64,000 nucleotides of DNA, from the NCBI GenBank assembly GCA_905178155.1, contig CAJINV010000010.1, positions 3,182,587 to 3,246,586 of the forward strand. The letters run 5' to 3'. The DNA is from Amoebophrya sp. A120. Lineage: Eukaryota > Protista > Dinoflagellata. Shown here piece after piece: positions 1-61,601 of the stretch (within the stretch, counting starts at the first letter, position 1; the number at the start of each line of letters is the position of its first letter). A program made the translations under genes and the position numbers. A model generated the notes under the pieces. That model saw only the letters and a list, made by a program, of their open reading frames with translations. It was not told the origin of the DNA and did no database searches.

Positions 1-2585
1 GTAGCCGCAGGCGTTCGCGAGCCAAATCTGCCCCTTGGACCGGATTACGCCGTTGAAAATGGCTGACCGGTTGAACTGACTGGTCGTCAGATTCTTCTTG
101 TTGACACTCGTCGTTTCTTGACCTTGAGCGGCAAGAACGGCAGGACCCTTCTGCGGTTCTTCTTGTTCCACACCAGCGCTGTTGGTGCTCACGGCCGCGA
201 ACTGCAATTCCTTGTCGTCCTTTTTCACATACTGGTTCAGCATCTGCTTGTTTTGCTGGTTCTTCGGGCACTTGGAACTCCCGCAGCACTTCTTTTTCAC
301 GACTACAGGCGGCTCTTCAATATTCTCCTCGGTTGCAGCGGGTTTACACAGTTCCTTGAACTTTGGTGGCTTAAAAGCGTGGTCGGAGATTTTCCCGAAG
401 CCGTTCAGCAGATCAAACAGCTTTTTGGGGTGAAACGGCTTGGACGCGCGAAAAATTACCGAGCTAATCCCATACCGCTCTGCCTGCACCGCCGTCCCCA
501 TGCAGGCGTCCGTATTCGCGCCGATCTGCTCCTTGCCGAGCTTCGCCGCTTTCCCCGTCCCGTCGTCCTTCAGCAGTTCGTGCATCCACCCGGCCTGGGT
601 TTCCGCGGTCCGGATATCGAACAGGTTGGTGTTCAAAATTTTCTCGCACGCAACTTTCCCGTGGTCGGTCCAGTAGAGGTTTGCAGCAGGGTTCAATTTG
701 GTAACCAGGTTTTCTATCAACTTTTTCTTGTACTCCAGGCAGGTGCTGTCTTCTATTTCCAGTTCGGATTTCGCTTGGTCGAGCTCGCGCTGCACGCTCT
801 CAACCAGCAGGTCTTCCTTGTTCAAGAGAATGACATTTGCGAATTCGATCTGGGCGATCAGTAAACCGGCAATACCCTGGTTCAAGTCGCTATTGTTTTT
901 TAACTCATGTGGTCGCTGTTCTTCTACTTCACCGCTCTTTCCAGTTGAAGCACCTTCTTTGTCGTCCGATGCAGAGGTGGTCTTCGTCTTCTGCGTCTGC
1001 CCTCCGCCACCAGCAAGCATTGCCTCCTCCTCCTGGATGCTCGCTTCCGCCTCCGCTACCGTCCACTTGGAATTCTTAATCGACTCTTTGGACTGTAATA
1101 CCTCCCAAATGCAGGCGGCGTCGACAACCGTGACCATGGTGTCGAGTCTCGTGCACTTCTGGAGCTGAATGGCCTGGGTGGCGACCAGCTTGCGCTCTTC
1201 TTCAGAAAGAACGCGAGCACTGTTGAATTTTGGAGATGATGGAGAATTTGTTTTACGTATTATCATGTCTACTTGTATTTCATGTTGCTTTGTTCAGCAT
1301 GCACCAGAGAAGGTCTTTTTGTTTTTCAATTTTCAAAAGCTAAAGCGAAGAAAGTTCTACCATCTACTTCGTGGTGGAGGTGGAGGATGACCTTCTACAA
1401 ATAAAGGGTGCTAGAGCCAGAGGTAGTTCATGGTATAGTAGGTTGTAACAAGTACCCTTTTCCATCCGTCACGACTTGTTCCCCGCCCTTCTTTCCGGCC
1501 GCCCGACTTGCGTCGTCAACATCTTTCATGTCAGCAACATCCTTTTCGTCTACAACTTCCTCCTCCTCTTCCTCGACCTCATCCCCCCGAGCAATCTCTT
1601 CTAATTCCTTGATCGAGTGACAGAAGGTTTGCGCGATGGGAACGGGCTCCGCGATGCCCGTAGACTCGATGATGAGGTAGTCGTAATTTGCCGTTTTGTC
1701 GTTCGCCAGCTCTGCAATCTGCTCCACCAGATCCTCCCGCAGCGTGCAGCATATGGCGTTCTCAAACGTTACATTCTCAACGGTTACATGGTTTGTCATG
1801 CGAAATTGCCTTCAGAAGCGCCACCATCAAGCTGCTTCGCATGACAAATTCTCAGAGGGCCAAATTATAGGGTGATAATCGGCGCCAAGTCTGTCATGCC
1901 AGACGCGCAAGATCTCCCCTATATACTTTTGCCATTCTTGCATCACAAATTCATGTAACAGCTGAGAATGTAACAGTTGAGAACAACGCCATACAGCACA
2001 CGCACCCGTTCTGCAGCGAAACCATCTTCGGCTTCACAGTTTGGTGCTTGTTCGGGTTATTTTGCTTGTTATGTTGCAGTATGCATTGCAAAAGTATCGC
2101 ACTCGTATAAAATGCATTACAAATTTCATCAGCATGAGAAATAAAATTTCTAATGCGGATTTGCCTTGAGAGAAAGATTTGCAATGCAAGACATGCATTT
2201 ATACGAATACCATACTTTTGCACAGGATATGCAGATGACCCGAACTTGTTGTAGAAGTAGTACTAGAGGATATAACCTTGTCGATCTGCAGGCTGTCCAC
2301 ATTCACACTTGCCATGTCGTTCACAATCATGGCAATCTTCAACCCCTGAGTGTTGTTCAAGATGTGCGTCAACGTGGTCGTTTTTCCGGACCCGAGAAAG
2401 CCGGATAGCACCGTGACCGGCAGGCGGCGGTCTGCCCCCTCGTCGGCGAGCTTTTGGGTGGATTTTGTCGCGACGACGAGATCCTCGCCATTGTTCTCTT
2501 CAAGGTCCACGACAACATCCTCTGTCGTCTTCTGCCGCTTTGCGGCAGTGGACGAATCCTGGTTCGGGCTCGTGTCGGGAGACAT
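1..2585 (-). CDS. CobW/COG0523 (G3E family, ZNG1-like) metal-chaperone GTPase, 3' end runs off the window; exons approx 2585-2235, 2079-1999, 1751-1456, 1219-1
   Basis: Motifs RLPVTVLSGFLGSGKTT (Walker A), KIAMIVNDMA, GCVCCTLREDL (after joining exons), YLIIESTGIAEPVP, RLDTMVTVVDA, QIEFANVILLNKED, IFRASKPFHP and GVIRSKGQIWLA. Confidence 0.92.
1220..1455 (-). other. Probable canonical GT-AG spliceosomal intron in the CobW gene
   Basis: Minus strand AAAGG|GTACTT ... TTCAACAG|TGCTCG; phase-2 join gives an in-frame K-G-A-R-V. No TIR or DR. Confidence 0.6.
1752..1993. mobile_element. Introner family C (TIR TATGGCGTTCTCAA)
   Basis: DR CAGCA; removal rebuilds the GCVCC motif. Confidence 0.92.
2080..2229. 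mobile_element. Introner family A (TIR TATnnnnnGCAAAAGTATCG)
   Basis: DR TGCAG; join in frame (GHLQHNK). Confidence 0.92.
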
Positions 2586-2970
2586 TTTTTTTTGAATAGA
2601 TGTGAACCGCTATAGTATTCTAAAGCGAACGAAAATAGAAGAGTCCGGTGCAGCAGGTGGAGCTGTATACTTCTCGATCGATGACGTCGTCGCAAAGTTA
2701 TGGTAGAAATGCAACCTAACACTATCCTATCCAAGAAATCATAATTAATCAATATCAAACTGGTCGGTTCTTTTTTAATATTGCGGTCGATTTCGAGATT
2801 TCTATTGTACGATCTTCGGCACTACCAGCGGATGATCGTCTTTATTGCCATGTTATCGTGCGCTGGGGAGCCGGAGTTTCTGGCTGAACAGAACAGAAAA
2901 GAACGAAAAATTACAAGGACCACCAGGGGACTTTAGATTATTTTGGATCTCCTGTTGTTGAGCTACATGC

Positions 2971-3272
2971 TGTGATCTTCATGCTGGTGCTCCTGAAGAT
3001 CTCATCTAGCTCCACCTGTAGCTCCTTTCGGTGACCACCTGGCACTGCTGGAAGCGATTGCTTTGCAAAAAAAAATCCAAGCTCTTTCATCAATCGATCT
3101 GTCGTGACCTCGCTCCAAGCCCGATTTTTTTTTTCAGAAATCTTTTCTAGCGCCCAAAGAGGAAGGGATCTTTTCATCGGTTCCGCCTGCGGACCTTGAA
3201 CATGAGTGGACCTATTTTCAAATCAACGGAGCGATCTTCACGCTCGCGGTCGTGCTTCTCCTATCAAATAAC
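2971..3272. repeat. Dispersed duplicate of 9665-9886
   Basis: Shared blocks GAAGATCTCATCTAGCTCC..GGAAGCGATTGCT, GATCTTTTCATCGGTTCCGCCTG and GCGGTCGTGCTT. Confidence 0.7.
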
Positions 3273-7828: not shown

Positions 7829-7983
7829 TCATGTACTTGTCTGCGGCATTTGACAGCATGATGTGCACTCAGAAAAATCGTCCCTGGGCCTTGTGGACTC
7901 CCCCAAGACCCTCATTACTGAATTACAATAAGGGTTGTAATTTATTACTTTTACTACAAGAGCTTCTATTTACTACAAGAACT

Positions 7984-8808: not shown

Positions 8809-8949
8809 TTTTCAAGTAACTTTTAGTTCGTTGCAGCACCACGTGGAGGTCGGTCTTCAATTCACTGTGTGTTGAGGCACTGGCGTCCGTTAAATTCGGA
8901 GCTTAGTTCTGCAAAATAATAAATATCAAAACTCTAGAAACCAAACTCG

Positions 8950-9347: not shown

Positions 9348-9492
9348 TATCCTGTGCAAAAGTATCGCACTCGTATTGCAGTCATGCATTACAAATCCTT
9401 TTGTTAAGGAAAATCCGCATTACAAATTGTATTTCTCATGCTGAGGAAATTTGTAATGCATTTATACGAGTACGATACTTTTGCAGTTTATA
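9348..9492. mobile_element. Introner family A
   Basis: TIRs present; DR CTCTC/ATCTC; host ORF unclear. Confidence 0.85.
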
Positions 9493-10319: not shown

Positions 10320-13300
10320 TAAGAGAACCAAACTACATGCACCATCATTATAGGCAGCTCCGGAGCACCTTCTTGTTTCGCATGGCAGAGGAGGTTCATC
10401 GCTGTCTGTTTTGCATTTGCTGCAACACAACCATGCAATACACATAGTACTGCAGCGCTTCTTTCCCTGCATATAATTCTCCCCCAGCTGCATATGGAAG
10501 CGTCAGGTTTGAAATCGTCAGAGTTGAAATAGTTACTATTTAAACAGCAGCAAACCAGAGTTTTTGAAGCTTTGGGGTGTGTTCTGGGGTATGTAAGGTG
10601 GCCGCGTAGCACCATGATTCGTAATTTGCAGGGTACACCCCGAACACACCCCAGACACACCCCCGACACACCCCCGAAAAACACCCCCGACAGACCCCGG
10701 CCGGAACTTTTAAGGCTTTGGGGTGTGTTCTGGGGTATGTAAAGTGGCCGCGTAGCACTGTGATTCGTAATTTGCAGGGCACACCCCGAACACACCCCAG
10801 ACACACCCCAGACACACCCCCGACACACCCCAGACACACGCCCGACACACGCCCGACACACGCCCAACACTCGCACCCGACAGACCCCGGCCGGAGCTTT
10901 TGAGGCTTTGGCTTGCGTTCTGGGGTATGTAAAGTGGCCGCGTAGCATCGTGATTCGCAAGTTACAGAGCACACCCCGAACACACCCCAGACACACCCCC
11001 GACAGACACCCCCGGCAGACACCCACGGCAAAAACCCCCGATACACCCCAGGCAACCACACCCAGGGCAGGGGGCAGAACAAATATCCAGAGCGGAGAGC
11101 GTTTCCGGATCGATCCGAATCGCGAGAAAGATCCAGAGCGGAAGAAGTATCCAAACCTGACGCAGACAAATAGTCTCGTAACCGGCGTCATTGCATACGC
11201 GGCCCGGCGCCAGGTCTCCGGGTCCAGCTGTTGACGCTTTGGACTCGGTCCCCGCGTCATGACCTAGGGGCCAGCTGTTGGCGCTTCCCGGAAACTAACC
11301 GCGCGGCCCAGGGGCAATCAAACAAAGGCCCTAGGGCTGGCAGCTAGGGGGCTCGCTCCCCGCGTCATGACCTAGGGGCCCGCTTTGGGCGCTTCCCGGA
11401 AACCAACCGCACGGCCCAGGGGCAAAAAACCTAGGTCAGCGCGGGGACTCGGTCCCCGCGTCATGACCTAGGGGCCAGCTTTTGGCGTTTCCCGGAAACT
11501 AACCGCACGGCCCAGGGGTAAAAGCCCTAGGTCAGCGCGGGGACTCGGTCCCCGCGCCATGACCTAGGGGCCAGCTCCGGGCGCTTCCCGGAAACTAACC
11601 TCACGGCCCAGGGGCAAAGGCCCTAGGTCAGCGCGGGGACTCGGTCCCCGCGCCATGACCTAGGGGCCAGCTACAGACCCGGCGCCGGAGTTATCGGCGC
11701 CCCCCCCGGCCCGGCGCCAGCTTCTTCCTTTCTTTTCTCCCTGCCCAGTGCCACCACAACCCCCGAGCCCCCTCGTCCCAGAGAGACAAATGCCGGAAGG
11801 TCGCCGCACGGGGACTCTGTCCCCGTGCTCGGACCTGCTTGTTTGTAATGCATAAAATGCATGACCCGAGGCACGTGCGTTGCAGAGCAGGCAAGTGAGG
11901 CCGATTGTAAGCCCGTTTGGGTTTACAGCTCGAGCTGCTAAAGTAGCATGAGAAAATCACTCTTCTTTGCCTAAACAGCATGACAAACTGGATTTAGGGA
12001 CCACCGAAATTTTTCATGCGCCACTTGGAAACTGGGTTCCAAGTGGCATCCATTTTATGCATGACAAACTACTTCAGCTTTGACGATTTCAATCCTGACA
12101 GTTCCATACTGCACACTCCTTGCCGCCGCATTCCCGCCCATCGGCATGGTCAATTTGTAGTAGTGTTTACTACTCGCCATAATCTTGTTCGGACGAGTTG
12201 ATGAAGCAGATGTTGTCGCTGTGCTACTAATTCCGCCCCTCGGCGTGGCTGTTGTCGGTGGCGTGGTAATGTTATCCCCTGAAAATATAGAAACGTCTGG
12301 GTCTGGAGAAGCAGAAGTGGGAGAAAATCTGTATTGCTTGGCTGGCACTTCTGAAAAATCTGTAAATGTTGAAGCCACAACAATATTGTCTCAACAAGCT
12401 AAAATAGTTTGTCATGCGCGCTACTAGGCACAATCATAGAGCGCCCTAAAAACTTCACATCTATGGCTGCCCTCACAACTTCTATTGCGCCAGTCATTGT
12501 CATTCAGATTCACAACTCCACATCACAATTTTGTTCTAGACCCAGACTGTACAACACATTTCTCTGCGTTTGATAAAGACCGGAAATCGTCGTAGCCGAA
12601 TTTTCCTGGATGACTGGTAGAAGGCCAACTGCTGTAGTTTGGTATGTAGAAGATGTCCTCCCGTGGTTTTCGAGCAAATCCAATTATGGATTGCAAAAAT
12701 GTCTGGGTCTGGAATGCAAGTTAGAAAATAACAAATGCACTGTAATGTTGCGCCGCCAAGCATGACAAGCTGCTTCGTGTTTCTGTGCTGCGTATTCCGC
12801 ATAAGAAACTCCGTTTTTGCATGACAGGCGAGAGAGGCTGTTTGTGGCCACGCAATACAGATTTCAGGGCCATGCCAGATCAGCATGACAAATCTCGCAA
12901 TCTTCCAGACCCAGACATATTTGCATTTGATACCACTTCTGACGCTGCGATGCTGTAGTTTCCGTACCGCGGGGTGTATCACAAGAAAAAGTGTTCTTAC
13001 CCTTAACGGAGTTTGTAATGCAGTGATGCATCAGAACAAAAGGTGCGCAAATTTGTATTGCATAGCATGCATGAGCATGGAAGACAAAATTTGTAAAGCA
13101 TGACTGCCATCTTCTGTGAAAACCGTTAAAAACGTTAATACTTTTTCTTGTGATAGGGTGTTGATTTGCTTCAGAAACTCGGCCCGCGGCACCCAGGTTT
13201 ATCCTGTGCAAAAGTATCGTACTCGTATAAATGCAAGTCTTGCATTACAAATTTTTTTCTTAAGGTAAATCCGCATGACAAATTTCATTTCTCATGCTGA

Positions 13301-30200: not shown

Positions 30201-30652
30201 TGCCAAAATTTGCTACGTTTAGCAAGCGGCCGCCATACCGTGCGGCCTAACGTTACTCACGGCGGTATGGCGAGTCCAGAAAAAGCAAAGCCGCGGCCAT
30301 GGCGGCGGCCGGCGGGCAAGAAAACGCCCACGACCTCACTACCCCCGCCCCGGCGGCTATATTTGGTACTAGTTAAGGATACTTTTGCACAGGATAAGCC
30401 ACGGCTCTCGGCTATTTCCAGATCGAAGTTCTCGCTGGACCGCCCGAGAATGGTGACTGATGGTGGAGGCACAGCTTCTCCTATAATTCCCGTCGTGCCT
30501 TTCTTGTCCGATGTAGTTGGAGACGCAGACGCAGTCGTGAAAAGGCCTGGTTGTACTGCTGGTAATTTGTCATTCGTGTCGTCAGCGAAAGGGTTAATGT
30601 GATTGTCAGCAGCACGGTCAGATGAAACAAAAATATCAGGGGGTTCCTTCAT
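27241..30652 (-). CDS. Hypothetical membrane protein, multi-exon
   Basis: ATG at 30652; hydrophobic segment SLFFFFFAVTLGLTILALYF; stop at 27241; middle exons not resolved. Confidence 0.5.
27298..27607. mobile_element. Introner family D
   Basis: DR CACCA. Confidence 0.9.
27851..28001. mobile_element. Introner family J (TIR GTAAATTTCCTGTACA)
   Basis: DR CGTAT. Confidence 0.85.
28062..28176. mobile_element. Short introner family K
   Basis: DR TCGAA. Confidence 0.8.
28603..28844. mobile_element. Introner family C
   Basis: DR CTATC. Confidence 0.9.
28882..29088. mobile_element. Degenerate A-like introner
   Basis: A-type right end; DR not recognisable. Confidence 0.5.
29521..30396. mobile_element. 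A-like introner with nested GC-rich insert
   Basis: DR AGCCC/AGCCA; join SRGYDHLK in frame. Confidence 0.8.
29636..30362 (+). mobile_element. Putative non-autonomous Helentron/Helitron2-like element
   Basis: Asymmetric 11-bp inverted repeat GTAGTGAGGTC (29636) / GACCTCACTAC (30332), followed by a short GC hairpin; no TSD seen. Confidence 0.5.
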
Positions 30653-46700: not shown

Positions 46701-49700
46701 GATGATAGTTCTGCATGACAAATTCATGTAACAGTTGAGAGTGTAACGTTAGAGAACGCCGTACATGGTTCGCGGGATCTCAGACACCTGCATCTGGATT
46801 TTCGTTTCGGTTTCGAGATTTTGGACTTTGGTGCTAATCCCATCGTCGTCGTCGTCATGGTCGACTCTAGATCCAGAAGCAGGTGCTTTTGGTGACTTCT
46901 TTGTTGTAGCCGTTGCTGACTTTGGCGTCTGTTCTACTGCTCCGCGCTGCACTTCTACTTGGGAAGCTGTAGACGCTGCACCTGCGCCAGCAGTAGAAGT
47001 CGTGCCTGCTGGTGCTGCTCCACCGGCTACTGGGCTAGTACCTGGTGCAGTGGTCGCACCAGCTCCACCAGAAGTACCGGCAGGCGTCACACCAGGAGAA
47101 GTCGTCGTGTTTTTCTTGAGCAGACTACCCATCAGATTCCCGATCATCCCGCTTGGAGATGATGTAGTACCCAGAGGAGCAGTCCCTGTGGTCTATTGCA
47201 CGGAAAAATCCCCCCTCCCCATATTGAAAGCATGTCCCTCCGAAAATTTGTGATGCAGATTTGTGGCCACAAATCCTGTCTGTCTTGCCAGAAGGCAAAT
47301 CCAGAGACTCCGCCACGATATGCAGGCGGTTTGTAATGCTGCAAGGCCTACAGGGCAGATGTCTGCCATGCTAGGCCCCTACACCAAAAGGCCCCTGCTT
47401 GGGCTTGCGATCTGCGCGCAGTGCTTTCCTGCAAGACAAATGTGATTTGTGTACGCAAATCCCGCATCACAGATTTCCGTTTTGATATGCGGAGGGGGGA
47501 TTTTTCATTTTGATATGGTCCCACTCAGGCTCAACGCGTTCGTCGGGCTCGACATCGGCGACATCACGATAGATACCGATTTCATATTCGGCGGGGTCGT
47601 ACTGTGTTGAGCAGGATCGAGGCCCACCGCCGCTGCGGCGGAAAGGGGCGATGTGGGTGCGGAACTATCTGCTCCGTCTTGATGGCCCCTGCTCTCAGTT
47701 TTCCATTTCAGCAAGGTGCTGGGTCGTTCGGAAAAAAAGGACAGGTCTTGTTTTTTCTTCTTCACCGGGGAGTTGGCGTTGGCCTTCGCCAACCTCTGAC
47801 TTTCCAATTTTTTCTTCAGCGCGTAGTTCTTCATTCGGGGGGACACCGACATGGTTTGCGACAAATCCAAGGTTTTGGAAGAGGAGAGGCTCATGCTCGA
47901 CGTCGACTTCCGAAAACTGTTCAAGGACATCAGTTTCTGCGGACTGGACGAGTTCGCAAGTTTTCTGTTCCGCATCCTGGTGGACTATCAACAGGAAAAA
48001 TCCCCCCTCCCTATACTGAAAAGGTGCATTTCTGGAAATTTGTGATGCTGATTTGTGGTCACAAATCGCGTCTGTCTTGCAAGAAGGCAATTCCGCAGAC
48101 AACCGCCGCACTGCGCAGGCCGTTTCTCATGCTGTTGGGCCTACAGCGCGGAAGTTTTTCATGCTAAGTGCCTAAGCCGAAACCTCGGTACTCACACTTG
48201 ATATGGGCCTTCAGTGCTCTCCAGCAAGACAGCTCGGATTTGTGTACACAAATCCAGCATCAGAAATTTCGGTCTGATATGGGGAGGGGGGATTTTATCT
48301 TTCGATATGGACAGCTGTTGCTTCGCGAGAAGTTCCTTCTCCAGCTCCTTCACGTCGAACACTCTTTCCACCCGGTCGACCTCTTTCTGCAGGGAGTCGT
48401 AGTACTTTTCGCGTTTTTGGGTCTCGATCAGTTTCTCCTTCTCCATCTGTTCCTGGAGAAACAGCTCCCCGCGGCGTCGTTTCTTCTCCAATTTTAGGTC
48501 CTCCATGGTCTGCTTCGCGAGCGGGGAAATGTCGCCCTTGTTGGAAATGTCGAAAATCTCCGCCTCCGATTCAATCGGGCGGAATTCCTCCCAGCCGACC
48601 TTGCGGTCGAACTCTTCTTCGTACTCTTCTTGCTCTCGCTTCCGCGCGTTGGCCATGGCGCTGGTGAGGAAAGACAAGTCCCGGTCCGGCCCCCAGGTTT
48701 TCATCGTGTACCTTCTAACCGTCGCATTGTGGTCATGTTTCGGCCCGGAGGACCCCGCAAAAATGCGCTCGTAGTCTTGGAGTGCTCTTTTCTTCTGCCT
48801 CTCAAACTCCGATAGTTCTTGTATGGGCTGATGTAGTTCCTCCCTCGGGTGGAAAAAGTTCGAGGTTTTGGTCGTGCGATTGGAATGGTTGTTGATAGTA
48901 CTACCCTGGTGCATCCACATGAAATTGCTGTTTCCGTCCTCATTCATCAAAACAGACGAGTCTTGGAAAATCGGGTTGAAAGATGTTCCACCATCTTCTG
49001 TCGCCCCGTCCGCGTCTCCGTGCTCTCCGCCAGTGTAGATTTTCAGATTCTGACTGTTGGTCCGAAACCCACCCCCTCGGGTTGTCGTCGATGTCGCCAT
49101 GCTATCAAGTGTAAAAGTGTCTGGGTCTGGAAGAGTGCGCGACTTGTCATGCAGCTTTTCCATGGCCCACGAGGTCTGGAATGCAGGACCTAGCATGACA
49201 GATTCTGTTCGATCTCTCTCATGCCTATCCTGCATGAGAAACTCCCTCCCGACTTGGTCAAAGCTGGGCGACTTTTGGTAATCATGCAACACAGATTTTT
49301 GCATGTTTCAGATTTAGCATGACAAGTTGCATTCTTCCAGACCCAGACATTTTTACATTTGATACATGCTGCTTCGCGGGCTGTTTCCACTGTTGATGGA
49401 CGCAGCGGACGCAGTCAAGTTCGGGTTATGAGAGTGCACAACTCCCCTCCCCCTCATTTGTATAGCATGCACGGCAATCATCATCATCATCATCATGTAG
49501 TGGACACCCGTACCCAGCGCCACAGGTCAAGCATCCCCTCCCCGGGGGGTGGGCGAGGAAGCACTTTCGGCGACCTCAACATACAAAAGCCGAGCGCTAC
49601 CACGGCAAGTCGCCCCAATAAAAGTACCAACCAAGCATCAGCAATACAAGCATCAGCAGTACGGCAATACAAGCATCAGCAAGAATGCCGGTTTTGCATG

Positions 49701-52700
49701 ACAAATTTGCACTCCTGGAGTGTAGTGCTATTTGGGCTACCCGAACTTGTCATGCAAACAGTGCCAAAGACCAAGGCGTGAACTAGGCATTTTGCATGAC
49801 AAATGAGGGGGAGGGGGAGTTGTGCACTGTCATACGGGTTACTGGCGTTGCTGAAGGCGGAGGTCGTGGTGCCAAATAACGGAGCTCCTTGTTGTGCACC
49901 GCCGTGTTTCGGCGAAGAGGCTGCAGTAGCTCCGCTGACAAATTCCACGACGGGTTTCTTAATATGCGTCATCATCCCGCTAGTACCTGGTCCTCCTCTC
50001 GTCCGCCACTTCGGGTACTCCATCACCAATGGCAATTGTTTCTCCTGCTTCGAAAAGCAATCCTTGTACAGGTCACTGGGAAGCTTCACCGGGGGTAGCT
50101 TCACCGTGATTTTGTCTTCTAAAACCGAGGATCTGAAGATCAAATTATCCACGGCGTACTCGTAATACAACGGCCGGACTTGTTCCACCCCATGATTTTG
50201 AAGCGCCTGTTGTTTATTCCGCGCGGTCACCGCATTTATTTTCGGTGACGTGCCACCATGATTCGTGAGATCGATACGGAGGTGCGGTTCCTGGAGGATG
50301 TTGAGAGTGGTTTCTTGTTGGTCAGCAGATGAGCCTTGAAGGAGATGTTGGTTTTGACTTTGTCTACTAGTATTTTCTCCAATGTTATTCCACTCCACCG
50401 AGCTGGTGACGGACCCAAACCCGACCTTTGAGCTGCTTCGCGAGTTCTCTGCGGTTGTCGACTGGTTTTTCTGCGAATCAAAGTCGTGTGGGTCAAAGTC
50501 CCGAACGAGCGGCGCGAGCGTTTCTCGGACCTGCAAATTCTGGCACTTCTCGAAATTGAGACGAACGGGGGAGTTGGAGACCAGTAAGTCGTCCATTCGA
50601 GAGTTGTTCGGCGAGATTACGCCACCAGCGCTTTTCGGTGACGATTCTGGAGATGAATTTCTCTCCTTCATTTCCCGTTCCCACGCGAGTTTTTTCCGGT
50701 CTTCTAACAGCTTCAACTTTTCCTTCTCTACCGCTTGTACCCTTTCATCCGCAAATTCTTTTTTCAGCCGCGAAATGTCGCGCAGTTCCCATTTCCAGAG
50801 ACTGGACATGAGGGAATTTCGCCGGCGCTCCTTCTCTTTCTTCTCCCGTTCGGACATGCCTTTCGCAGTGGTTTTCCGACGACTGAGGGATTTCGAGGGT
50901 GGTGAGTGAGAAGCGGAGACCACAGCAGGACCTGCATTAGCAGCGGCCGCCGCCGCCGCGCCAGCCCCAGCAGTAGCAGAAGTATCCGTTGTTGTGGAGG
51001 CTTGTGCACCAGCTGCGCCCTCTGCAGCTCCTGCTCCGGGCCCGGAAGTAGATGAGCCAGTCGCAGAACTCGAGGAGAATCCGCTCGCTGCAGTGATGTT
51101 GTTGGTCTGGGATGATGAAACGCCTGTAGCTTCTTTTCCTCCTGTCGCGATCTTCACCTGAGAGGCACTCTTCGGTGACAAGGCTGATGAACCAGCGCCG
51201 CCTGCTGGAGCAGTGGGGGAAGAAGTTGTACCTGCACCGGCACCCGCAGCTCCACCAACATCCAGGCTCGATTTCGACGACGCCATGAGACTCCCCGTGC
51301 TCGCCCTTCGTTTATTCCCGGCTGCCATCGCTTTCGGGGTCGGATTCTTATGCTCTTCTAACGCGAGCATGGCGGCGTCCGCGAGCGAATCCACTTCCAA
51401 AATGCGGCTGGACCGTATGACAGTGCACAACTACCGTACCTCTCCCCCTCATTTGTAATTGTATATTAGCATGAACAGCAATACAAACGCCGGCACCTAT
51501 GGAGCCTGTGCATGACAAGTTCATCATGCGCGTAAGGTAAGTAGTCCTGCTTGGGCTACTACTTTCGGAATCTGTCATGCAAACATCACCACAGTGCAGC
51601 GCTTAGATTTGGTATTTTGCATGACAAATGAGGGGGAGGGGGAGATGTGCACTTCTCTCGTAGATCGGTCAAATTTCCTCAATTTCCTTGCGGCTTTCTG
51701 TTTCTTCACCACTTCAGCTGCGTGCTTCTCAGCGGCGGTTACGTGCTCGTTGAAATACTGTTTGGACAAAACCCCGCTCTCCAATTGCTGCTCCAAAATC
51801 GACAACGACAGCGGTCTCTGCACGGCGGCGGAGCCGAACCCGATCACCTTCTTCCTCTTCTCTTTCAGGATCCTCGCCCGCGCCGGGTCCAAATACCCAT
51901 GCTTGTTTTTCGACACAGATTTTTCCTTCTGGATACTAGTACTGTGCTGCTGATGAGGATCGACATCTTCAGGTAGGTCGTCAATAAGAAATTGCTCTAC
52001 CGTTTCTTGGTGAATCACGAGTCGCTTATGCTGGCTCTCGTGGTTTTCGTTTTCCTCCTCGCCGTCGCCGTTGTTCCCTTTATTGTTCCCGTTGCCTCCT
52101 CCGCCCCGCCCGTTGGGGATCTCTTTCCTGTCTGGCGTTTCTTGCTCTCCTGCGTTATTTGATGTTCCCAACAGTCCTAGACTCACGTTGTTGAACTTGT
52201 TGCAGATGTCGACCTCGTGCTCAATTTGGTTCAATTTGATTTTCTCTGCCAGCTGCTCCTCGGATTCTACAAAAGGGTACTGGACCAACCGCGGGCCGCC
52301 GGCGAACATCAAATTCAGTTATGGATTGCAAATATGTCTGGGTCTGGAAACTTGTAATGCTAAAAGTGAATGTTAGACGCACTACAATACGCAGCTATGC
52401 ATGACAATTTTTTTCGCTGACATGTGTTACGTATTCCGCATGGCAAACTGCGTTTTCGCATGACAGGCAAGAGGGCCTTTTCGTGCCCATGCAACACAGA
52501 TTCTCGAGTCATGCCAGACAAGCATGACAAACTTGCATTCTTCCAGACCCAGACTACATTCATATTTGCAGTGCGTATCAGTTTCGCGGAATACACCTCC
52601 ATGCCGAGCTGTTTCAGCGAATCCCGTTCCGGCTGCCCAAACGCCTCCGGATACGCGTGCTGCAGGTAGACGTCCCAAAAGAGCGACGGCTTCGTCTTCT

Positions 52701-55475
52701 GCTGCTGGATCAGGTGGTGATTTATCGGTGTCTTATTACTGCTGTGAAGGCCGCCTCCTGCGGAACCCGTTTTATTGGTCAAATCCGCACCTCCTGCGGT
52801 ACCAGCGCCTGCTCCCTTAGCCATACTCGAGGCGGAGGTCACCTGCATATTTTGCTGGTTGCTCGCAGTAGTTCCGAACTCTTCGCCGCTGGAGCTGGTG
52901 ATGTGGTGCAGTTGGTCCTTTGGATCGAGGGTCGCAGCGGTTGCTTGGAGGGAGGAAAACATGGGCATCGTCCCGTAATATGCATTGCAAATGTGTCTGG
53001 GCGGTCTGGAACAATGCAATTCGTCACGCTGAGTCGGGATCGTGCAAAGATTTGTGTTGCATGGTTACCAGAAGTTGTCTACAACTTCTGAACAAGTTTG
53101 GAGGCAGTTTCTCATGCAGGAAACGCATGATAGAGATCTCACAGATTCTGTCATGCTAGATGCTGCATGCCAGACCTCATGGGTCATGGAAAACCTGCAT
53201 GACAAGTGCAAGTCTCGCAAAAATCCTCCAGACCCAGCATTATTTGCAGTTGATACGTAACGAAATTCGTCCATTTCGTTTTCCGTTCTCTTCTATCCTG
53301 TGCAAAAGCATGGTATTCGTATTGCAATCATGCATTACAAATCTTTGTGTTAAGTCAAATCCGCATTACAAATTTTACTTCCCATGCTGAGGAAATTTGT
53401 AATGCATTTATACGAGTACGATGCTTTTGCAATGCATATCTTCCGCCCGACTTGCAGCTCGCCGTCCGGTCCCAACAGCTGTTCCTCCTCCTCGTCGCTG
53501 TCATCTTCCCCTTGCACGCCCGTCTCGTCAATCTGCACCCCCCACGTTTCAAAAGCCCGCTTCAAACAGTCCGCCGCTTCTTCCAGCGTACAGAGGAATC
53601 CCTTGGGCACCTGGTCCGGCGGCCCGAAGATAATCTTCTGCCGCTTCTCCTGGGAATAGTTGAGATACGGTGGATATCAAATGCAAAAGTGTCTGGGTCT
53701 GGGAGAATGCAACTTGTAATGCGTATTTCAGAACACAGAAAAGTCTCTCATGCATACGTAGCAAAAGCTGCCCACTTTCTGTCAGCAAAATAGGGGACTT
53801 GTCATGCGGATTCGGCATTGCGGAAGCTTCTCGAAACCTGTGATGCTAGAGCTTCCATGCCAGACCTTCTGTGTCATGCAAAAACAGCATGACTCTTCCA
53901 GACCCAAACATTTTTATATTTCATAGTGGAATCGGCTGCCCGGCCAAAGTCGTCGGCCCGCCCTGGTACAGTTCGCCGAACTTGGCGAGGGTTGTCGGGT
54001 ATGGCATTCTCAACTGTTACACTCTCAACTGTTACATGAATTTGTAATGCAAGACTGCCAAACGTGAAAGCAGGAAGATTGCGCCTTTTGCATTACAAGT
54101 TTGGCGCCGATTTAGATGCTGTTTAGCCCTTCCGAAATTTGTCATGCGAAGCAGCTCGATCACCTGCCGGCTTAAGGTACTTTTGCATGACAAATTCATG
54201 TAACAGTTGAGCATGTAACGTTTGAGAACGCCATATCGTGCGGCGACCTGCTCCCGACGTGGAAGATGAAGTGCTAGTAGCAAAACCTGCTGAGGGAACA
54301 AGATTTTGATCAGTAGAAGAGCCTCCTCCTGGTGCACCATTGTTTTTCATCTGTTGCAACATACTCACTGCGTGCTTATGCGGGGACAAAAAATCCGGCA
54401 ATCCCTGGGACGTGACAGTCGGGTCCGCGCTGTAGTTTTTCCCGAACGCGTGCGTAGAATCGTCCAAAACATCCTTAAACGAGGCTTTCTCCAGATCCAG
54501 CTTATCTTTTTTACTCCTTTTCTGACCGCCAGCTCCTTTAGTCGTCGCGCCGTCAGTTTTGCCATTCCCCGTGTAACCGCTGTTCCAAGTTTTCTGCCAC
54601 TCCGCCATGGGCACTTTTCCCGGATTTACCGCACCCTGCGCGGCGGTCAGAGCCTGCTGCTGGTGTGGTCCTGATAAAGTTGTGCCTTGTTTAGTATTTT
54701 TCCCCTGCTTCACAGCTCCGTCCACAATGTATTTGTTGTTGTTCGCACAATACTGCTGCCAGAACCGCCACTTCCGCTCCCACTCGTCCAGCAATACCGG
54801 CGTCCCTGGCTTCAGCATCTCGTTCTTCTTGTTTTCGAAACGGTCGCGCTTCAGCTTCTCGTTCGCGATTTCAGTAAAGGACTTGTGTCCGGTATGGATT
54901 GTAAAAATGTCTGGGTCTTGAAGATTAGCACTTGTAATGCTTGCTTTCCATACCTAGAAAATCTGTATTGCATAACCAACAAAAGTCGCAGCCTCTTTTG
55001 TCATGCAAAAACGCAGTTTCTCATTCGGATTGCCTATGAGAAAGCGCGTTGGGAAGTTGTCATGCCGGACTGCATTCGGAAGTGTTTTCCTCATGCCCAT
55101 TTTAGCATCACAAGTTTCCAGACCCAGACATTTTTGCATTTGATATCCGGTGAGAACCGACAAAACGAAGCACTGCGCCTTGTAGGAAATCAGTTCTCGT
55201 TTGTTCAGCGAGTGTTTCCGCAGAATGATCCGCAGCACACGGAAAAGATTCTTCTCGACTCTGGTTTGCGGGTTAAACTGCTCGTACAGGTTCTTCAAAG
55301 GCTGGTCGCACTGTGGGAAAAGCAATCGCGGGACGATTCCAGACTGCTGTAGTGCCGCTTTATTGTCCGCGATGGCGGCTTGTGGGGCCTGTTTCGGTGC
55401 GTTGCGACCACCTGCTCCCGGGGCGGGCTTGTTGGGACCTGATGAAATTATATACATCTTGACGGAGAGCTTCAT
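31800..55475 (-). CDS. Giant multi-exon protein (roughly 4000 aa if one gene) with an RNI-like LRR block (42767-44145) and coiled-coil/low-complexity regions
   Basis: LRRs LLDLANLNL, LKDLDLAWN, LNRLNLNG, LKALDLSKN, LQFLDLSFN, LKSLELRGN. Joins checked in frame at 31893, 34088, 34391, 39666, 40436 and 42503; stop at 31800. It could still be more than one gene. Confidence 0.65.
31893..32155. mobile_element. Introner family G (TATA..GCTCAnGTGTTACAATCTCAAACG)
   Basis: DR TTCTG/TTTTG. Confidence 0.85.
32456..32761. mobile_element. Introner family F variant
   Basis: DR TCGAT/TCGAC. Confidence 0.85.
32836..32996. mobile_element. Introner family A
   Basis: DR TCAGG/TCACA. Confidence 0.75.
33084..33376. 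mobile_element. Introner family H (AAAAACGTCCCCA)
   Basis: DR TTGGC/TTGGT. Confidence 0.85.
33501..33728. mobile_element. Introner family E
   Basis: DR TCAGA. Confidence 0.9.
34088..34243. mobile_element. Introner family A
   Basis: DR AAAGT. Confidence 0.9.
34391..34650. mobile_element. Introner family B
   Basis: DR TCGCT. Confidence 0.9.
34693..34914. mobile_element. Introner family E
   Basis: DR ATCTC/TTCTC. Confidence 0.88.
34968..35121. mobile_element. Introner family A (left end TCT)
   Basis: DR TGAGT. Confidence 0.85.
35346..35607. mobile_element. Introner family B
   Basis: DR GCGGT. Confidence 0.9.
35658..35926. mobile_element. Introner family G
   Basis: DR AGCGC/AGCGT; ends GTA. 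Confidence 0.82.
36447..36698. mobile_element. Introner family B
   Basis: DR TTCCA. Confidence 0.9.
36741..37055. mobile_element. Introner family F
   Basis: DR GAGTC. Confidence 0.9.
37492..37648. mobile_element. Introner family A
   Basis: DR TTCCT. Confidence 0.9.
37690..37990. mobile_element. Introner family H
   Basis: DR GGTGT. Confidence 0.9.
38094..38328. mobile_element. Introner family E
   Basis: DR TCTGT. Confidence 0.9.
38705..38915. mobile_element. Introner family I
   Basis: DR GTTGC; ~32-bp TIR. Confidence 0.9.
38962..39271. mobile_element. Introner family D
   Basis: DR AATGT. Confidence 0.9.
39666..39815. mobile_element. Introner family A
   Basis: DR CAAAG/CAAAC; join RYVFDLL. 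Confidence 0.9.
40436..42373. mobile_element. Introner family F with nested 1.6-kb TIR element
   Basis: DR AGCAG/AGTAG; flanking exons in frame. Confidence 0.85.
40543..42162. mobile_element. Non-autonomous TIR element with 6-bp TSD, filled with 11-bp repeats and palindromes
   Basis: TSD GGACTG; imperfect 22-bp TIR TTGACACGGAAACACCTCGACA; (GTCGATTCCTT)n; TTTCGTACAATTGTACGAAA repeated. Confidence 0.85.
42503..42766. mobile_element. Introner family B
   Basis: DR CAGAT; join VNDNLWDF. Confidence 0.92.
44146..44310. mobile_element. Introner family A, diverged
   Basis: DR CGTTT. Confidence 0.85.
44366..44627. mobile_element. Introner family B
   Basis: DR TGAAC. Confidence 0.9.
45010..45277. 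mobile_element. Introner family B
   Basis: DR AAGGT/AAAGT. Confidence 0.88.
45334..45642. mobile_element. Introner family H
   Basis: DR AACAG. Confidence 0.88.
45694..45838. mobile_element. Introner family A
   Basis: DR ACCTC. Confidence 0.9.
45875..46024. mobile_element. Introner family A (left end TAC)
   Basis: DR GTAGG. Confidence 0.9.
46302..46461. mobile_element. Introner family A
   Basis: DR AATCA. Confidence 0.9.
46516..46763. mobile_element. Introner family C
   Basis: DR CATGG; ends GTA. Confidence 0.88.
47194..47515. mobile_element. Introner family F
   Basis: DR TGGTC. Confidence 0.9.
47986..48307. mobile_element. Introner family F
   Basis: DR TGGAC. Confidence 0.9.
49103..49364. 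mobile_element. Introner family B
   Basis: DR CATGC. Confidence 0.9.
49427..49834. mobile_element. Introner family E, expanded (408 bp)
   Basis: DR CGGGT. Confidence 0.88.
51416..51662. mobile_element. Introner family E
   Basis: DR GACCG/GATCG. Confidence 0.85.
52320..52577. mobile_element. Introner family B
   Basis: DR TCAGT. Confidence 0.88.
52979..53255. mobile_element. Introner family B
   Basis: DR CGTAA. Confidence 0.88.
53294..53438. mobile_element. Introner family A
   Basis: DR TCTTC. Confidence 0.9.
53675..53925. mobile_element. Introner family B
   Basis: DR GTGGA. Confidence 0.9.
54000..54235. mobile_element. Introner family C
   Basis: DR TCGGG/TCGTG. Confidence 0.88.
54893..55145. 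mobile_element. Introner family B
   Basis: DR TCCGG. Confidence 0.9.
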
Positions 55476-56597: not shown

Positions 56598-59500
56598 TTA
56601 AAGATTATGCCGATAGTAGCTAAATTCCCTTCTCGCAGTGCTGGGACTTCGGTAGAAGGTCTCCGCCTCCCTTTCTGTGCCCTCTAACAGTTTCTCCGCT
56701 AGGAAAAGCTTCTCTTCTTTTTCAAAAAAGTCCTCGTTAGTCGCCCCTGGAACCAAGAAACCTTCTCTGTGTTGTTGAGCGACTGGATCTATTATTCCCC
56801 CAGCAGTATCATCAAAACTACTAGTTGCACTTTTAAACCTCACCTGCGGCGGCAAAATTTCGTCGTTCAGAACCCTCTGTGCCTCCTCCCACAGTTTCGC
56901 GAATTTGCGCATGTCCAGGAAAATGTTCTGGGAGTGCCAGAAGCCGCCGCCATACTCCGCAATGTACTGCTTAATCATGTACCACCGCGATTCCCCGTTG
57001 TTAGACTTGTGCACCTCGCAATTGTGGTGTACTTTCCCGTTCAACCTGGTCAGCCCGCCAAAATGCGTCACGGGGTTCATGTATCAAATGCAAATATGTC
57101 TGTAATTATGCAGGGTCTAGTATCTTCAGAGGTTCTTCGGCAGGGTAGATGTGGTCTATGCGATGCCTATCTCGTCGCATGAGGAATGTTGCCGTCTCAA
57201 GATCCTGGCTAAAAATGGACACCATCTTTTCCGAGTTTTGTACGACGGACTTTTGCGTGACGGTCACAAAGCATCACAAGTCTCCTCCTGCACTGTTCTA
57301 CTTCTTCCAGAAGATCTAGATCCAGACATATTTGCACTGCATATCATGTTCCACCCGCGATCGCAGAAGCCGTTTAGCGGGGGAAAGGTGTCCAACAGGA
57401 TCGACCCCGGCTTCATAAACACCGCCCAGGCGTTAGCTGCGCCGGTCGCCCCCATCCAGATGTCCGCTTGTCTGGCGAGAAAGTACTGCGTGGTTGGCGT
57501 GATTTGCTCCAGATACACGACTATGCATTGCAAAAGGAGCATCGCACTCGTGCTAATCGCATTCATGCATTACAAATTTCTTTCTTTAGTCAAATCCGCA
57601 TTACAAATTTCATTTCTCAAGCGGAGGAAATTTGTCATGCGATTTATTTTTATACTAAGTTAGTACGATGCTTGTTTTGCAGTGCATAACGACCAGCACC
57701 GCGACTTTGCCAACCGAGGAGAGAAATGCGAGTAGCTCGCTCAAGTTTTCAAAGGTCCTTATGGCGTTCTCAACTGTCACATTCTCAACTGTTACATGAA
57801 TTTGTCATGCAAAAACAGCAATAGGGAAAAGGTAAAGCTTGCAAGTCTTGCATCACAAGTTTCGCACGGATTTGGATGCTGTTTGGCACTTCGATAATTT
57901 GTCATGCGAAGCAGCTTAATCGTCTTGCGGCTCATGCTCATTTTACATGACAAATCACGTAACAGTTGAGAATGTATCGTTTGAGAGCGCCATAGTCCTC
58001 TTCGCTTTTTTCTGGCGCTATGAACTGCAAAAGTATCGTACTAGTATAAATTGCATGACAACTTGGCCCAGCATTAAGAATTAAATTTGTGATGCTGATT
58101 TACCTTGAGAACGAGATTTGTAATGCATAAATGCAATTAGTACTACGAGTACGATACTATTGCATTGCATAGGCGCTGCACAATCACCAAATTCGTCTCC
58201 ACCGGTATCCAGGACCAAAACTGCGTAAGTGTAACTTTGTAGAAAGAAGAAGAGCAGCATCACAAATTCGCTTTGCATTTTTACAGGAAGAAGAACCTGT
58301 CATGCAAAGGCAATATCTGAAAACACGTAGGAAAGTAGCCTATGACGCAGACCCAGCATGACAAATGTATACAGTTTTGCATTTTCTGCATGACAGATTT
58401 ACACTCACACAGATTTTTTCTTGCATAACCGGGTGTGTGCTGTTTTCAAAGCGGTACAGCGTAGACACTTCTTCTACTTCTTCCTGCTGGTGTCCTTCGT
58501 CGTCATTCGCTTTTGTTCTTGGCGCACCAGCGCCGGGAATGTCCTTCAATGGTAGCGAGGTGCGCGGGAATTCGTGCAGGCAGGTGTGGTCGCGGAAAAA
58601 ATCGCAGTCGTGGGGATTTTTGCTGTTTGCACGAATGTTGGATGATGATGAAGCAACAGCCCCTGCGGTTTTAGTACTTATGCTGCCGTATCTATGTTGG
58701 TATGCGAGGATCGCGTGTTGCATGTCGTTAGTTACTTCTGCGCCGGTGCTAGTAACTTCAATATGATGATCTCCCGGAAGCTCCGCGGTTGTGGAACCTC
58801 CCACGATTATATCCTCGTCTACCTTGCTCCAAAGCATGCGCCGGTAATAGTCCCACTCGACGGAGCAACAGCGGACTAACGAGTTGGACATCGTCTTCAA
58901 CTTCGAGGCACTGGTGAATCGATTCTTACCGGGATTGGAATTCATGAACAGGTTTCGGTGCACATTCTCGTAGCAGTAGGCTTTGACTTCTTCTTCCGTG
59001 TCCAAGTTCCGCAGAGTTGCAGGGCAGTCCGGGTTCTTGTGCGGGAGGTGAGGGATGGGGCCTACTTCTGCGGAAGTAGATTTTTGGTGCTCCTGTAGTT
59101 GTCCTACATTTGATGTTCCCGTCGAGGACGAAAATTCCTCATGTACTCGGGTTAACATGAAGTTGAAGATCCTACTCGTAACGAAGCCGCCGATACCGGT
59201 GCGGAGCGGCTCGCGGCCAAAGACGATACCTTGGAGGTTTTTGGAAGTAGTAGAGGATTTGATCTCAACTCGAATGACCGTTCTTCGTCGAAGTGTATGA
59301 AAGGATCAATAGCGCTTCCGCTTTCTTCTGTAGCCGACTGCTTTGCTTGGTACGACTACTTAGCACAAGAACGTCTTCAAATGCCGCTGCAGCGAGCTTT
59401 ATTCGTCTACAGATCTAGATCACTGAAAATGAGAATGAAACCACAGCACAACTCTGTAGCAGTACGCTCGTAGCATCTTGGCTTTAAGTCCTGCCCGAGC

Positions 59501-61601
59501 GGTATGGGCGGGTTGTAGCTCAGCAGGCTCCACCAAAATTTCACGATGCCCCCTTGGTCGAACGCTTGCGAGTTTCCCTGGATGATCTATCCTGTGCAAA
59601 AGCATCGTCTGCTAGTAGAAGTCATTGCAAAATTGCCATCGATATCTTCAGTGTGAGTCATGCTGAATTTTACCTGGGAAACCAGATTTGTCAACGTCAT
59701 GCAACAAAATTGCAATTACTAAGACCACCTCGATAACAAGTACTCTGGAAAAATTGCCCAGGATATCATTTCTAGAATATCGACCTGTGTCTGATCCGGC
59801 AGGCGCATGTAGGGGAGGTTGTTGTGCTTTTCACTTTTCTTGTATTGCCCGGTCAAAACCCGCCAGAAATGGTTCATCTTTTCCTCCTGCTTCTGGTTGG
59901 GGAACTCGAACCGGATGTCGACTTTAAAGGGGTCTGCACAGATCCCGTACTCCTCAGCCTGCAACTGGTAAAACGCCGGGGCAGTCAAGTGGAGCAGGTG
60001 GTAGGGATTTCCCTCGGAGACGCCCGCCATCATCGCGGTCACAACGTAGAGTGTGTCCGTGTAGTGACTCGTCGCGTTGTTGCACATCGCGCTTTGGAAG
60101 GCTTGCTTCTTCTGCGTCGACAGCCTCCTCGTCCCTGGGTCGATATCGCCGTCGAAAACTAGGTTCGTGAACCAATAGTTACCAAACTCCCCACAGGTCC
60201 GCAAGGCCGTGAAATCTCGCTTTTCCTCCCCGGTCAGCCCGAAGAGGTGCAGCTGATTGCCGTGGATGCAGGCGTTTTCCATATGACAGTGCACAACTCG
60301 TCCCGGTCCCCCTCATTTCTATTTTTGCATGAACACCCGCACCTGTGGAGCCTGTGCATGACAAGTTCATGCGCGTAATGCAGTACGTACTGGGGAGCTC
60401 CTAGAGCTTCCGGAATCTGTCATGCAAACGGTACCTCCACAGAGCACCGCGGCTTCCTTGGATTTGGTATTTTGCATCACAAATGAGAGCGCGGAGGGGG
60501 AGCTGTGCACTCACATATTCCACCAGCGTGGCGCACTTCGTGGAGGAGAGGAAAGATAGCTTCGACTTCTTGAGTCGTTGTGTTTTTTCGTCACGGTCTG
60601 CTGTACTTCCAGGTGAAGGAGAATGCTCCTGTCCGCAGTGCCGCGATTTCTTCATCGCTTTATTGCGCGGCGCTGCTGTGTCGGACTCGGAGGAAATCAG
60701 TGCGCTTGTTGAAGTTGTAGACAGGGAACTGCAAGTTTTCACGGGCGATGGTGTTAAAAAAGGCTCATCTTGATCTTGATCGTCGGAGGACGTCAGTGCA
60801 TCAACTTCTTGTTGTAGTGGTGGCGTTGCTCCTCTTTTGTAGCTGTTCTTCTGCGCTGCGCCTCTAGTTCTACTTGCCGAAGTTCTTCTTGCAGTTACCG
60901 ACAATTTTTGGTTGAAAAACCGGGCTTCTGACTGTCTATTCTCCCGGCTGCGCCAAATGATCTGCTGCAGCAGTTTCGGGCTCGCGTCCATGAATATGAA
61001 CTGCAAAAGTATCGCACTCTTATATATAAAAAAATGCATCACAAATTTCCTCAGCATGAAAAAACGAATTTGTCATGCTAAATTACCTAAGAACCCAGAT
61101 TTGTCATGCTAGTCTGGCATTTATACGAGTACGATACTTTTGCACAGGATAATGAAATTCAAGGATTTTTTCGTCCCGGTGCGCCGCTCCAGTTCCCCCG
61201 ACAAGTCCGTGAGCGTCAGGACAAGGTTGCGGTAATTGTCGTAAAATTCTTCGACATCGTATCCCCAGACCGACCGGTCCAGACACGACGTCACCAGGGG
61301 GATTTGGTAGCTATGAATTGCAAAAGTATCGTACTCCTACTCGTATAAATGCATTAGAAATTCAAACTTCCTCAGCATGAGAAATAAAATTTGCCATGCG
61401 GATTTGCGTCAAGAAAAAGATTTGTAATGCATGGCTGCAACTACTACAAGTACAAATACAATACTATTGCAGTTCATAGTAGTTCGCGAGCTGCATATAC
61501 CGGTAGTAGTGCCGGAGGTTCCGCTGGAGACCGAATTTCCCGGGCTCCCGACTGTCCTCGTCCTTTAGGAGAAAAGGTATGCACTGCAAGAGTTTCGACA
61601 T
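56598..61601 (-). CDS. Glycosyltransferase family 61-like (DUF563/EOGT-type) protein, multi-exon
   Basis: ENACIHGN, GNPYHLLHL and VVYLEQITPTTQYFLARQADIWMGATGAANAWAVFMKPGSILLDTFP resemble the GT61 C-terminal motif. The first two joins are in frame from ATG 61601. Confidence 0.65.
57082..57343. mobile_element. Introner family B, diverged
   Basis: DR TCATG. Confidence 0.85.
57522..57688. mobile_element. Introner family A
   Basis: DR ACGAC. Confidence 0.88.
57760..57994. mobile_element. Introner family C
   Basis: DR GTCCT. Confidence 0.9.
58019..58171. mobile_element. Introner family A
   Basis: DR GGCGC. Confidence 0.9.
58206..58427. mobile_element. Introner, diverged I-like
   Basis: DR ACCGG. 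Confidence 0.8.
59588..59765. mobile_element. Degenerate A introner
   Basis: TATCCTGTGCAAAAG left end; DR TGATC/TCATT. Confidence 0.6.
60282..60517. mobile_element. Introner family E
   Basis: DR TTCCA. Confidence 0.9.
60995..61151. mobile_element. Introner family A
   Basis: DR ATGAA. Confidence 0.9.
61312..61478. mobile_element. Introner family A
   Basis: DR GTAGC/GTAGT. Confidence 0.88.

Follow-up and report, generated by a model that had tools for sequence, protein, structure and literature searches.

How are introns whose borders carry no clear dinucleotide signature recognised and removed? The question is raised by a 64,000-nucleotide stretch of the genome of the dinoflagellate Amoebophrya sp. 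A120 (contig CAJINV010000010.1, positions 3,182,587 to 3,246,586, hereafter the window), in which genes are interrupted by transposon-like introns, or introners, that begin with TAT, end with ATA and are flanked by 5-bp direct repeats. Comparison of these elements with assembled contigs, an annotated protein and the assembly of a sister lineage leads us to infer that the intron is N-TAT ... ATA-NNNN on the coding strand, beginning 1 nt before TAT and ending 4 nt after ATA, in whichever orientation the element was inserted.

The elements themselves are known, being described in Farhat et al. (2021) and Gozashti et al. (2025), and an earlier reading of the window from its letters alone (the sequence-only reading) was right that introners had been reported in Amoebophrya. 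The annotated A120 protein P0002 is 100% identical to a window exon, and the window elements are the published A120 introners. Farhat et al. (PMC7789003) describe MITE-like (miniature inverted-repeat transposable element) introns of ~240 nt, with inverted repeats that start with TAT followed by seven loose bases and an A run, and with borders marked by direct repeats 3-5 nt long (the legend of Fig. S19 shows one of 5 bp). They call the A120 splice position 'variable' and its border 'unknown', without a clear dinucleotide signature, report that no transposase was found in A120, and note the same repeat layout in 15% of canonical A120 introns. By the same account A120 retains 83 of 89 spliceosomal proteins and the U2, U4, U5 and U6 small nuclear RNAs (snRNAs), while U1 snRNA was not found. 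Gozashti et al. (PMC12130899) class most A120 introner families as terminal inverted repeat (TIR) DNA elements and others in other classes, and the row for family fam38 reads 'Ginger; 5-bp TSD, TA/TA Termini'. In 19 of its 58 A120 rows and in fam38 the automatic calls of target-site duplication (TSD) vary from 2 to 5 and splice sites are mostly non-canonical and mixed.

The window elements agree with those of Farhat et al. in strain, TAT inverted repeats, 5-bp repeats within the 3-5 nt range, occurrence in families and removal from transcripts. One removed length, one register of the cut, orientation independence and a shared internal motif, all derived here, go beyond that account as given in its text and legends. 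No statement of the fixed register, the orientation independence or the shared motif was met in the Amoebophrya-intron literature searched, which was mostly open-access (including PMC11282704, PMC12005148 and PMC11453091) and did not cover the figures of Farhat et al.

Elements and their removal

A strict scan for TAT...ATA pairs of 60-1500 nt with an exact 5-bp repeat returned 58, in 49 of which at least 11 of the 20 terminal bases are complementary; five shuffles gave 0-1 such pairs each. When stretches bounded by inverted repeats were scanned blind to motif, TAT/ATA was the most frequent end pair at repeat size 5 (46/118), and sequence logos display an inverted repeat starting TAT-N7-AAA. 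The final catalogue comprises 81 delimited elements totalling 22,174 bp (34.6% of the window), matching the roughly 80 claimed by the sequence-only reading: 76 automatic calls, less two dropped as spurious (41315 and 55361), plus seven placed by hand from homology, contigs or protein, with two degenerate copies (~51416-51662 and 11842-12108) excluded from the counts. Their direct repeats are exact in 58, with one mismatch in 18, two in three and three in two, and the rare variant ends TAC, TCT and GTA that had been listed are indeed present. The claim of at least 11 families also stood, the elements falling in 23 clusters, of which 15 have several members once second-assembly elements are added, the rest being singletons. 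Short, non-coding, and with terminal inverted repeats and a target duplication, they have the features of MITEs or non-autonomous TIR transposons.

All gene models built in the window lie on the minus strand. Deleting each element plus five bases leaves 74/76 junctions inside frames that run without a stop for at least 150 aa (longest 1981 aa), compared with only 55-63 (longest 573 aa) at frame-shifting offsets, and regains the CobW GCVCC and SET INY-CPE motifs, as the sequence-only reading had it; Pfam supports the CobW and SET exons. Offsets of +2 and +8 score like +5, so the frame test alone cannot set the removed length. The further claim of the sequence-only reading, that the element leaves together with exactly one repeat, is confirmed by contig joints and by P0002. 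Contigs from four sets of one sample, of RNA status presumed and not on record, bridge all the elements from 12685 to 17798, and all 14 listed joints skip the element length plus 5; a fifteenth, old element (12273-12575), placed from loose contig ends, is also skipped by +5. One contig skips five further elements (57082..58427) in sum, with exactly the predicted 287 nt remaining, and P0002 fits +5, never +2 or +8, at 17/17 correctly delimited elements tested. Among the skipped elements are both orientations of the 150-bp family and elements swollen by nested inserts to 1.5 and 1.9 kb, the 1.5-kb case as judged from side length. Uncovered stretches in X4-X8 were not counted as evidence.

Two raw RNA runs of 2026 (X9 and X10) yielded 181 and 208 partly aligned reads, which are uninformative on junctions because nearly all are 90-95% alike and confined to element pieces. 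In these runs well-covered transcripts contain a related element piece from another locus, at window 49278-49364 and 45549-45589, which may be retained or may come from another strain.

Position of the cut within the repeat

The cut can be expressed as a register k, the number of upstream-repeat bases that enter the intron, which is readable where the two repeats differ. The presumed-RNA contigs give ranges of 0-3, 0-2, 1-4, 1-2 and 0-1, whose sole common value is 1, and two inferred joints add 0-2 (12273) and 0-3 (17842, deduced from the last joint, whose side is 41 nt long). P0002 sets bounds of k at least 1 at 34693 and at most 3 at 32836, 4 at 33084 and 2 at 40436, and the re-delimited 35658 element, read by eye, gives at most 4. 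Further junctions come from the second assembly (contigs JACKZZ01, 159 loci collected by pattern scan), which represents a sister lineage with a test exon 67% identical to its A120 ortholog. For one sister-lineage element the residue expected is Gly at k=0, Glu at k=1 and Lys at k of 2 and above, and the A120 ortholog carries Glu; another, which lies in a Rab gene, calls for Ala if k is 0-1 and for Asp if it is 2 or more, and Ala stands in both homologs and in the four PDB alignments shown. A 30-aa query against PDB gave no match.

In all, 14 junctions are informative, every one allows k=1 and one admits only that value. The mirror register, k=4, is excluded by an upper bound of at most 3 at ten of them (12273, 12685, 13973, 14645, 14796, 17842, 32836, 40436 and the second-assembly loci L015 and L041) and allowed at three (14433, 33084, 35658); 34693 has a lower bound only. 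It is because k=1 alone fits all 14 that the intron is written N-TAT ... ATA-NNNN, and because ten out of ten exclude the mirror register while orientation is about even (150-bp family copies lie 11 versus 9 ways round within same-strand genes) that the asymmetry is taken to follow the coding strand. Within that family, the single opposite-orientation copy that could be used allows registers 1-4. This fixed, asymmetric position inside the repeat was overlooked by the sequence-only reading. In register 1 an insertion into a target ending AGG yields an ordinary GT-AG intron, as at 16926-17091, which reads GT...AG. In the window few repeat mismatches fall on the fourth base (1/30), but the second assembly does not show this (12/44) and the pattern was dropped.

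Signals at the ends

End signals were counted in 275 elements, 80 from the window and 195 strand-assigned in the second assembly (of 317 unique elements with enough flank); the strand caller, trained on the window, gave concordant neighbours in 137/138 cases and 0 calls in 122 kb of shuffled sequence. The first T at the 5' end is invariant (275/275, in a catalogue admitting at most one end variant per element) as against 269/275 for its 3' pairing partner (p=0.03, uncorrected over 16 positions), and the first A of ATA is kept in 274/275 against 269/275 for its partner (p=0.12, uncorrected); in register 1 they correspond to U(+2) and A(-7). Almost any base can stand at the first, second-last and last positions of the intron, where 76 window elements show 43 different combinations. 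Of the hallmarks of U2-type introns, U at +2 is present in 275/275 in register 1, whereas GT/GC-AG termini can be placed at only 3/76 junctions, so that, in keeping with the sequence-only reading, the true junctions do not fall at GT-AG sites. The fifth repeat base, which supplies both +1 and the first exon base, avoids C (44 versus 68 expected, p=0.008 uncorrected), leans towards purine and is the sole one of 15 flank positions to depart from the frame-matched background; phase 0 is in excess (126/268). Targeting of AG|G proto-splice sites was rejected. In predicted folds, made without a shuffle control, at least 7 of the first 12 terminal bases are paired in 51/78 elements and 9/78 lack an end-to-end pair. 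The end motif TTA-R-R of strain A25, as given in the text of Farhat et al. (PMC7789003), would become N-U-A-R-R were its first base taken as +1, donor-like with a free first base.

Mode of removal

On balance we think that the introners are removed by a spliceosome with relaxed ends, to which the outermost base on either side of the intron no longer matters. In the 5' splice site, which would read N-U-A-U in the manner of G-U-A-U, the conserved U(+2) would be supplied by the initial T of TAT; the leading A of ATA, at -7, would be the candidate branch nucleotide; and distance would determine the 3' cut. This would resemble the situation in Giardia and Trichomonas, in which the branch point is fused with the 3' site at a fixed branch-to-3'-site spacing (PMC6679479). 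The terminal stem would draw the ends together, replacing U1 and the G(+1)-G(-1) contact and, as the ends are inverted repeats, either orientation would present the same signals and every insertion would be removed without a scar. A relaxed spliceosome is favoured because the A120 machinery is near-complete, the CobW gene has a probable GT-AG intron, an AGG target produces a canonical intron in register 1, Giardia and Trichomonas show the required spacing, and the spliceosome of Fritillaria is flexible enough to serve 95% non-canonical introns (PMC13326754). That the first T and A(-7) are better kept than their pairing partners argues for base-specific reading rather than mere pairing.

Several points weigh against removal by the spliceosome and the register on which it is drawn. 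Lariat, branch point and snRNA pairing are all without observation, and the roles of U(+2) and A(-7) are candidate ones; the differences in conservation are slight, uncorrected for multiple positions and in part post hoc. The 43 end combinations are freer than the ends in Fritillaria and, among the 195 sister-lineage elements, AG at -2,-1 is not preferred (17 versus 17.4 expected) and G at +1 is only mildly favoured (73 versus 61), while +5 leans towards C, not the canonical G (57 versus 36 among cases with unequal ends, p=0.04). One RNA junction only (14796) excludes k=2, the other two such tests resting on homology; an in-frame-stop test of register had an informative case in 0/33 mismatched elements, summed codon log-odds do not tell register 0 from 1, and the joined contigs, which are only presumed to be RNA, all derive from a single sample.

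The same elements and register would also suit a nuclease that takes the foot of the TAT/ATA stem as its reference point, cutting 1 nt away on the 5' side and 4 nt away on the 3' side, followed by a ligase that joins the exons, as proposed for euglenozoan nonconventional introns. We regard this as possible but doubtful, and give it weight because its geometry resembles the Euglena code, in which, analogously, the 5' spacer (3 nt) is shorter than the 3' one (5-6 nt) and the exon starts with a purine (PMC12501133). The purine lean at the first exon base of A120 elements, the free end sequences, the terminal pairing predicted in 51/78 elements and the failure to find U1 in A120 all suit it, and RNase III-plus-ligase and tRNA-type routes have been proposed for diplonemids (PMC12621601). 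If pairing were all that counted, however, the two members of a pair should vary equally often, and the variants number 0 versus 6 and 6 versus 1; moreover 9/78 elements have no end-to-end pair in the predicted fold, the old copy with offset arms (12273-12575) is still skipped, and no candidate enzyme was identified in this analysis. We hold equally tentatively what it would imply, scarless mRNA splicing in A120 by a non-spliceosomal nuclease-ligase, convergent with Euglena, that reads no border base, measures 1 and 4 nt from the stem and clears insertions in either orientation, even kilobase nested inserts.

It is improbable that the cut slides within the repeat, the variable register drawn in Farhat et al., and that agreement on one value is chance. 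The repeats are identical and the junction unplaceable in 58/81 elements, and a single contig consensus or a single protein stands behind each of the informative ones, but register 1 lies within the range of all 14 and is the only value admitted by one. Excision from DNA in some life stage, like that of ciliate internal eliminated sequences, with the joined contigs being DNA, appears very improbable indeed: no record identifies the joined runs as RNA and one DNA run only was compared, with joints known from those listed (at 90% likeness, element-to-element joins), but its ~45x DNA contigs match the window with 0 differences through the element borders (one covers 57082-57343 whole), the register follows the coding strand, and the introns of Farhat et al. 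were defined from RNA-seq junctions (PMC7789003). Removal most likely takes place at the RNA level, in a register tied to the coding strand, and the dedicated excision system proposed by the sequence-only reading may be either a new machine or a relaxed spliceosome.

Comparison with other intron systems

The nonconventional introns of Euglena (Nomura et al. 2025, PMC12501133) are similar in layout, with a paired near-end motif, free terminal bases and fixed spacers, longer on the 3' side. Their first exon base also leans towards purine, their junctions are masked by direct repeats, and a MITE origin has been proposed for them. They differ in motif (CAG/CTG against TAT/ATA), in spacers (3 and 5-6 against 1 and 4) and in belonging to an unrelated lineage, and A120 elements do not follow the Euglena-type N3-CDG ... 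CHG-N5-6 code; the Euglena code was tested by knock-in, whereas that of A120 is derived from sequence comparison. In Fritillaria borealis (Soo et al. 2026, PMC13326754), as in A120, transposon-derived introns dominate and escape GT-AG, but there AG/AC and AG/AT ends dominate, U1 is kept and U2AF is duplicated, while A120 ends are near random and U1 was not found.

Insertion and origin of the elements

The 10-mer GCATGACAAA, picked by eye, occurs at least twice in 77/78 short window elements (326 matches versus 25 in shuffles), is common to all families and lies mostly 30-50 bp from the element end. Same-direction neighbouring copies are spaced 31-33 bp in 58/183 cases, family members not being independent, and this spacing of three helical turns suggests a DNA-binding protein such as a transposase. 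The shared 10-mer supports a common mobiliser, short of proof. Insertion would be by a retroviral-integrase-like (Ginger-like) transposase supplied in trans and binding this 10-mer.

The single transposase lineage proposed by the sequence-only reading is plausible for all families, as judged from the shared TAT/ATA ends, the 5-bp duplication, the internal 10-mer and the Ginger label of fam38; the transposase itself was not found by Pfam in the window or in long element copies. Long elements with the same ends, which that reading coupled with a transposase frame, do exist, and Pfam gave no match in those at 17842, 29521 and 40436 or in seven of the second assembly. Other TAT...ATA elements of 0.46-1.5 kb, among them L021:505-1608, have exact or near-exact repeats, GC-rich inner repeats and no recognisable frame. 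A candidate long element at L002:950-6889 was judged a chance pairing.

Ginger/Tdd transposons (Bao et al. 2010, PMC2836005) are alike in having terminal inverted repeats, TDD-4/5 give 5-bp duplications, and the three-base Ginger end TGT is one base away from TAT. They are unlike in their TGTNR ends and mostly 4-bp duplications with sequence preference, against TAT, 5 bp and no preference here. TGT occurs at 2/195 5' ends in the second assembly, TAT in nearly all, and membership of Ginger fails on the termini, Ginger ends being TGTNR.

No DNA ortholog of a window gene for an empty-site comparison was present among the 159 second-assembly loci. That lineage (L001-L159) shares A120 element families at 70-97% nucleotide identity; A120 families had been reported strain-specific between A25 and A120.

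Exons between adjacent elements cluster at 30-79 nt (28 versus 12 expected in the window, 79 versus 30 in the second assembly), and few are shorter than 30 nt. Local insertion beside an element already present, the spacing of chromatin or a lower limit on exon size could account for the pile-up.

Other features of the window

Coordinates are collected in Table 1. Nested insertions lie inside the introners 17842-19382, 29521-30396 and 40436-42373, again without a Pfam match; that at ~17999-19332 has 122-bp inverted repeats similar to the repeat block at 61.7-63.7 kb, where ~133-bp units with internal inverted repeats form a tandem array of at least 14 copies (61700-63600). An element-poor stretch runs from the CobW gene to the gene ending near 12 kb and holds tandem arrays of ~240-bp, 11-bp and 96-bp units (3877-4800 and 10490-11700) and a lone element end at 10493-10534. 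Rfam and viral contigs gave no match.

Table 1. Introners and other features by window position; 'skips' is the number of nucleotides passed over by a contig joint and 'register' the range of k.
Feature	Position	Strand	Evidence
Probable ordinary GT-AG intron, CobW gene	1220..1455	-	frame alone
Introner in CobW gene, 242 bp, exact 5-bp repeat	1752..1993	-	strict scan, frame, Pfam
Introner in CobW gene, 150-bp family	2080..2229	-	strict scan, frame
150-bp-family element outside any gene model built	9348..9492		
Old element, 3/5 repeat bases differ; skipped (+5), register 0-2	12273..12575	-	loose contig ends
Introner, skips 253, register 0-3	12685..12932	-	contig joint
Introner, skips 184	12977..13155	-	contig joint
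Introner, skips 160	13200..13354	-	contig joint
Introner, skips 318	13418..13730	-	contig joint
Introner, skips 320, register 0-2	13973..14287	-	contig joint
Introner, skips 170, register 1-4	14433..14597	-	contig joint
93-bp introner, 3/5 repeat bases differ, skips 98, register 1-2	14645..14737	-	contig joint
Introner, skips 274, register 0-1 (sole RNA junction excluding register 2)	14796..15064	-	contig joint
Six introners (15111-15259, 15929-16202, 16347-16596, 16926-17091, 17249-17447, 17649-17798), each skipped by length+5	15111..17798	-	
1541-bp element, 200-bp-family ends with nested insertion having its own 122-bp inverted repeats	17842..19382	-	
Seven introners (19461, 19820, 20114, 20806, 21383, 21664, 22153)	19461..22279	-	
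Two introners in SET-domain gene (24421-24674, 25462-25668)	24421..25668	-	Pfam SET exons
Six elements (27298, 27851, 28062, 28603, 29149, 29521-30396 with nested insertion)	27298..30396	-	
19 introners, gene of annotated protein P0002 (34693-34914 register at least 1; 32836-32996 register at most 3)	31893..39815	-	
1938-bp element, repeat-rich insertion within 320-bp-family ends; skipped in P0002, register at most 2	40436..42373	-	
13 introners in 1981-aa frame (42503, 44146, 44366, 45010, 45334, 45694, 45875, 46302, 46516, 47194, 47986, 49103, 49427)	42503..49834	-	
Six introners (52320, 52979, 53294, 53675, 54000, 54893) and degenerate copy ~51416-51662	51416..55145	-	
Five introners (57082, 57522, 57760, 58019, 58206), jointly skipped by one contig	57082..58427	-	
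Three introners (60282, 60995, 61312)	60282..61478	-	

Implications

Two thirds of A120 introns belong to the class whose splicing is at issue. The analysis confirms known elements, and its refinement, the fixed position of the cut, makes the open question of their splicing testable. The code N-TAT ... ATA-NNNN turns 'variable splice sites' into one rule and corrects gene models; it points to two bases for mutation and to a site at which to seek a lariat, and so would allow spliceosomal and nuclease-ligase models to be distinguished. If the spliceosome is responsible, it would be one that ignores all terminal bases; if a nuclease and ligase are, A120 would be a second, independent case of Euglena-like splicing. 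The invasion of the genome by introners would be explained in that insertions into coding sequence cost nothing.

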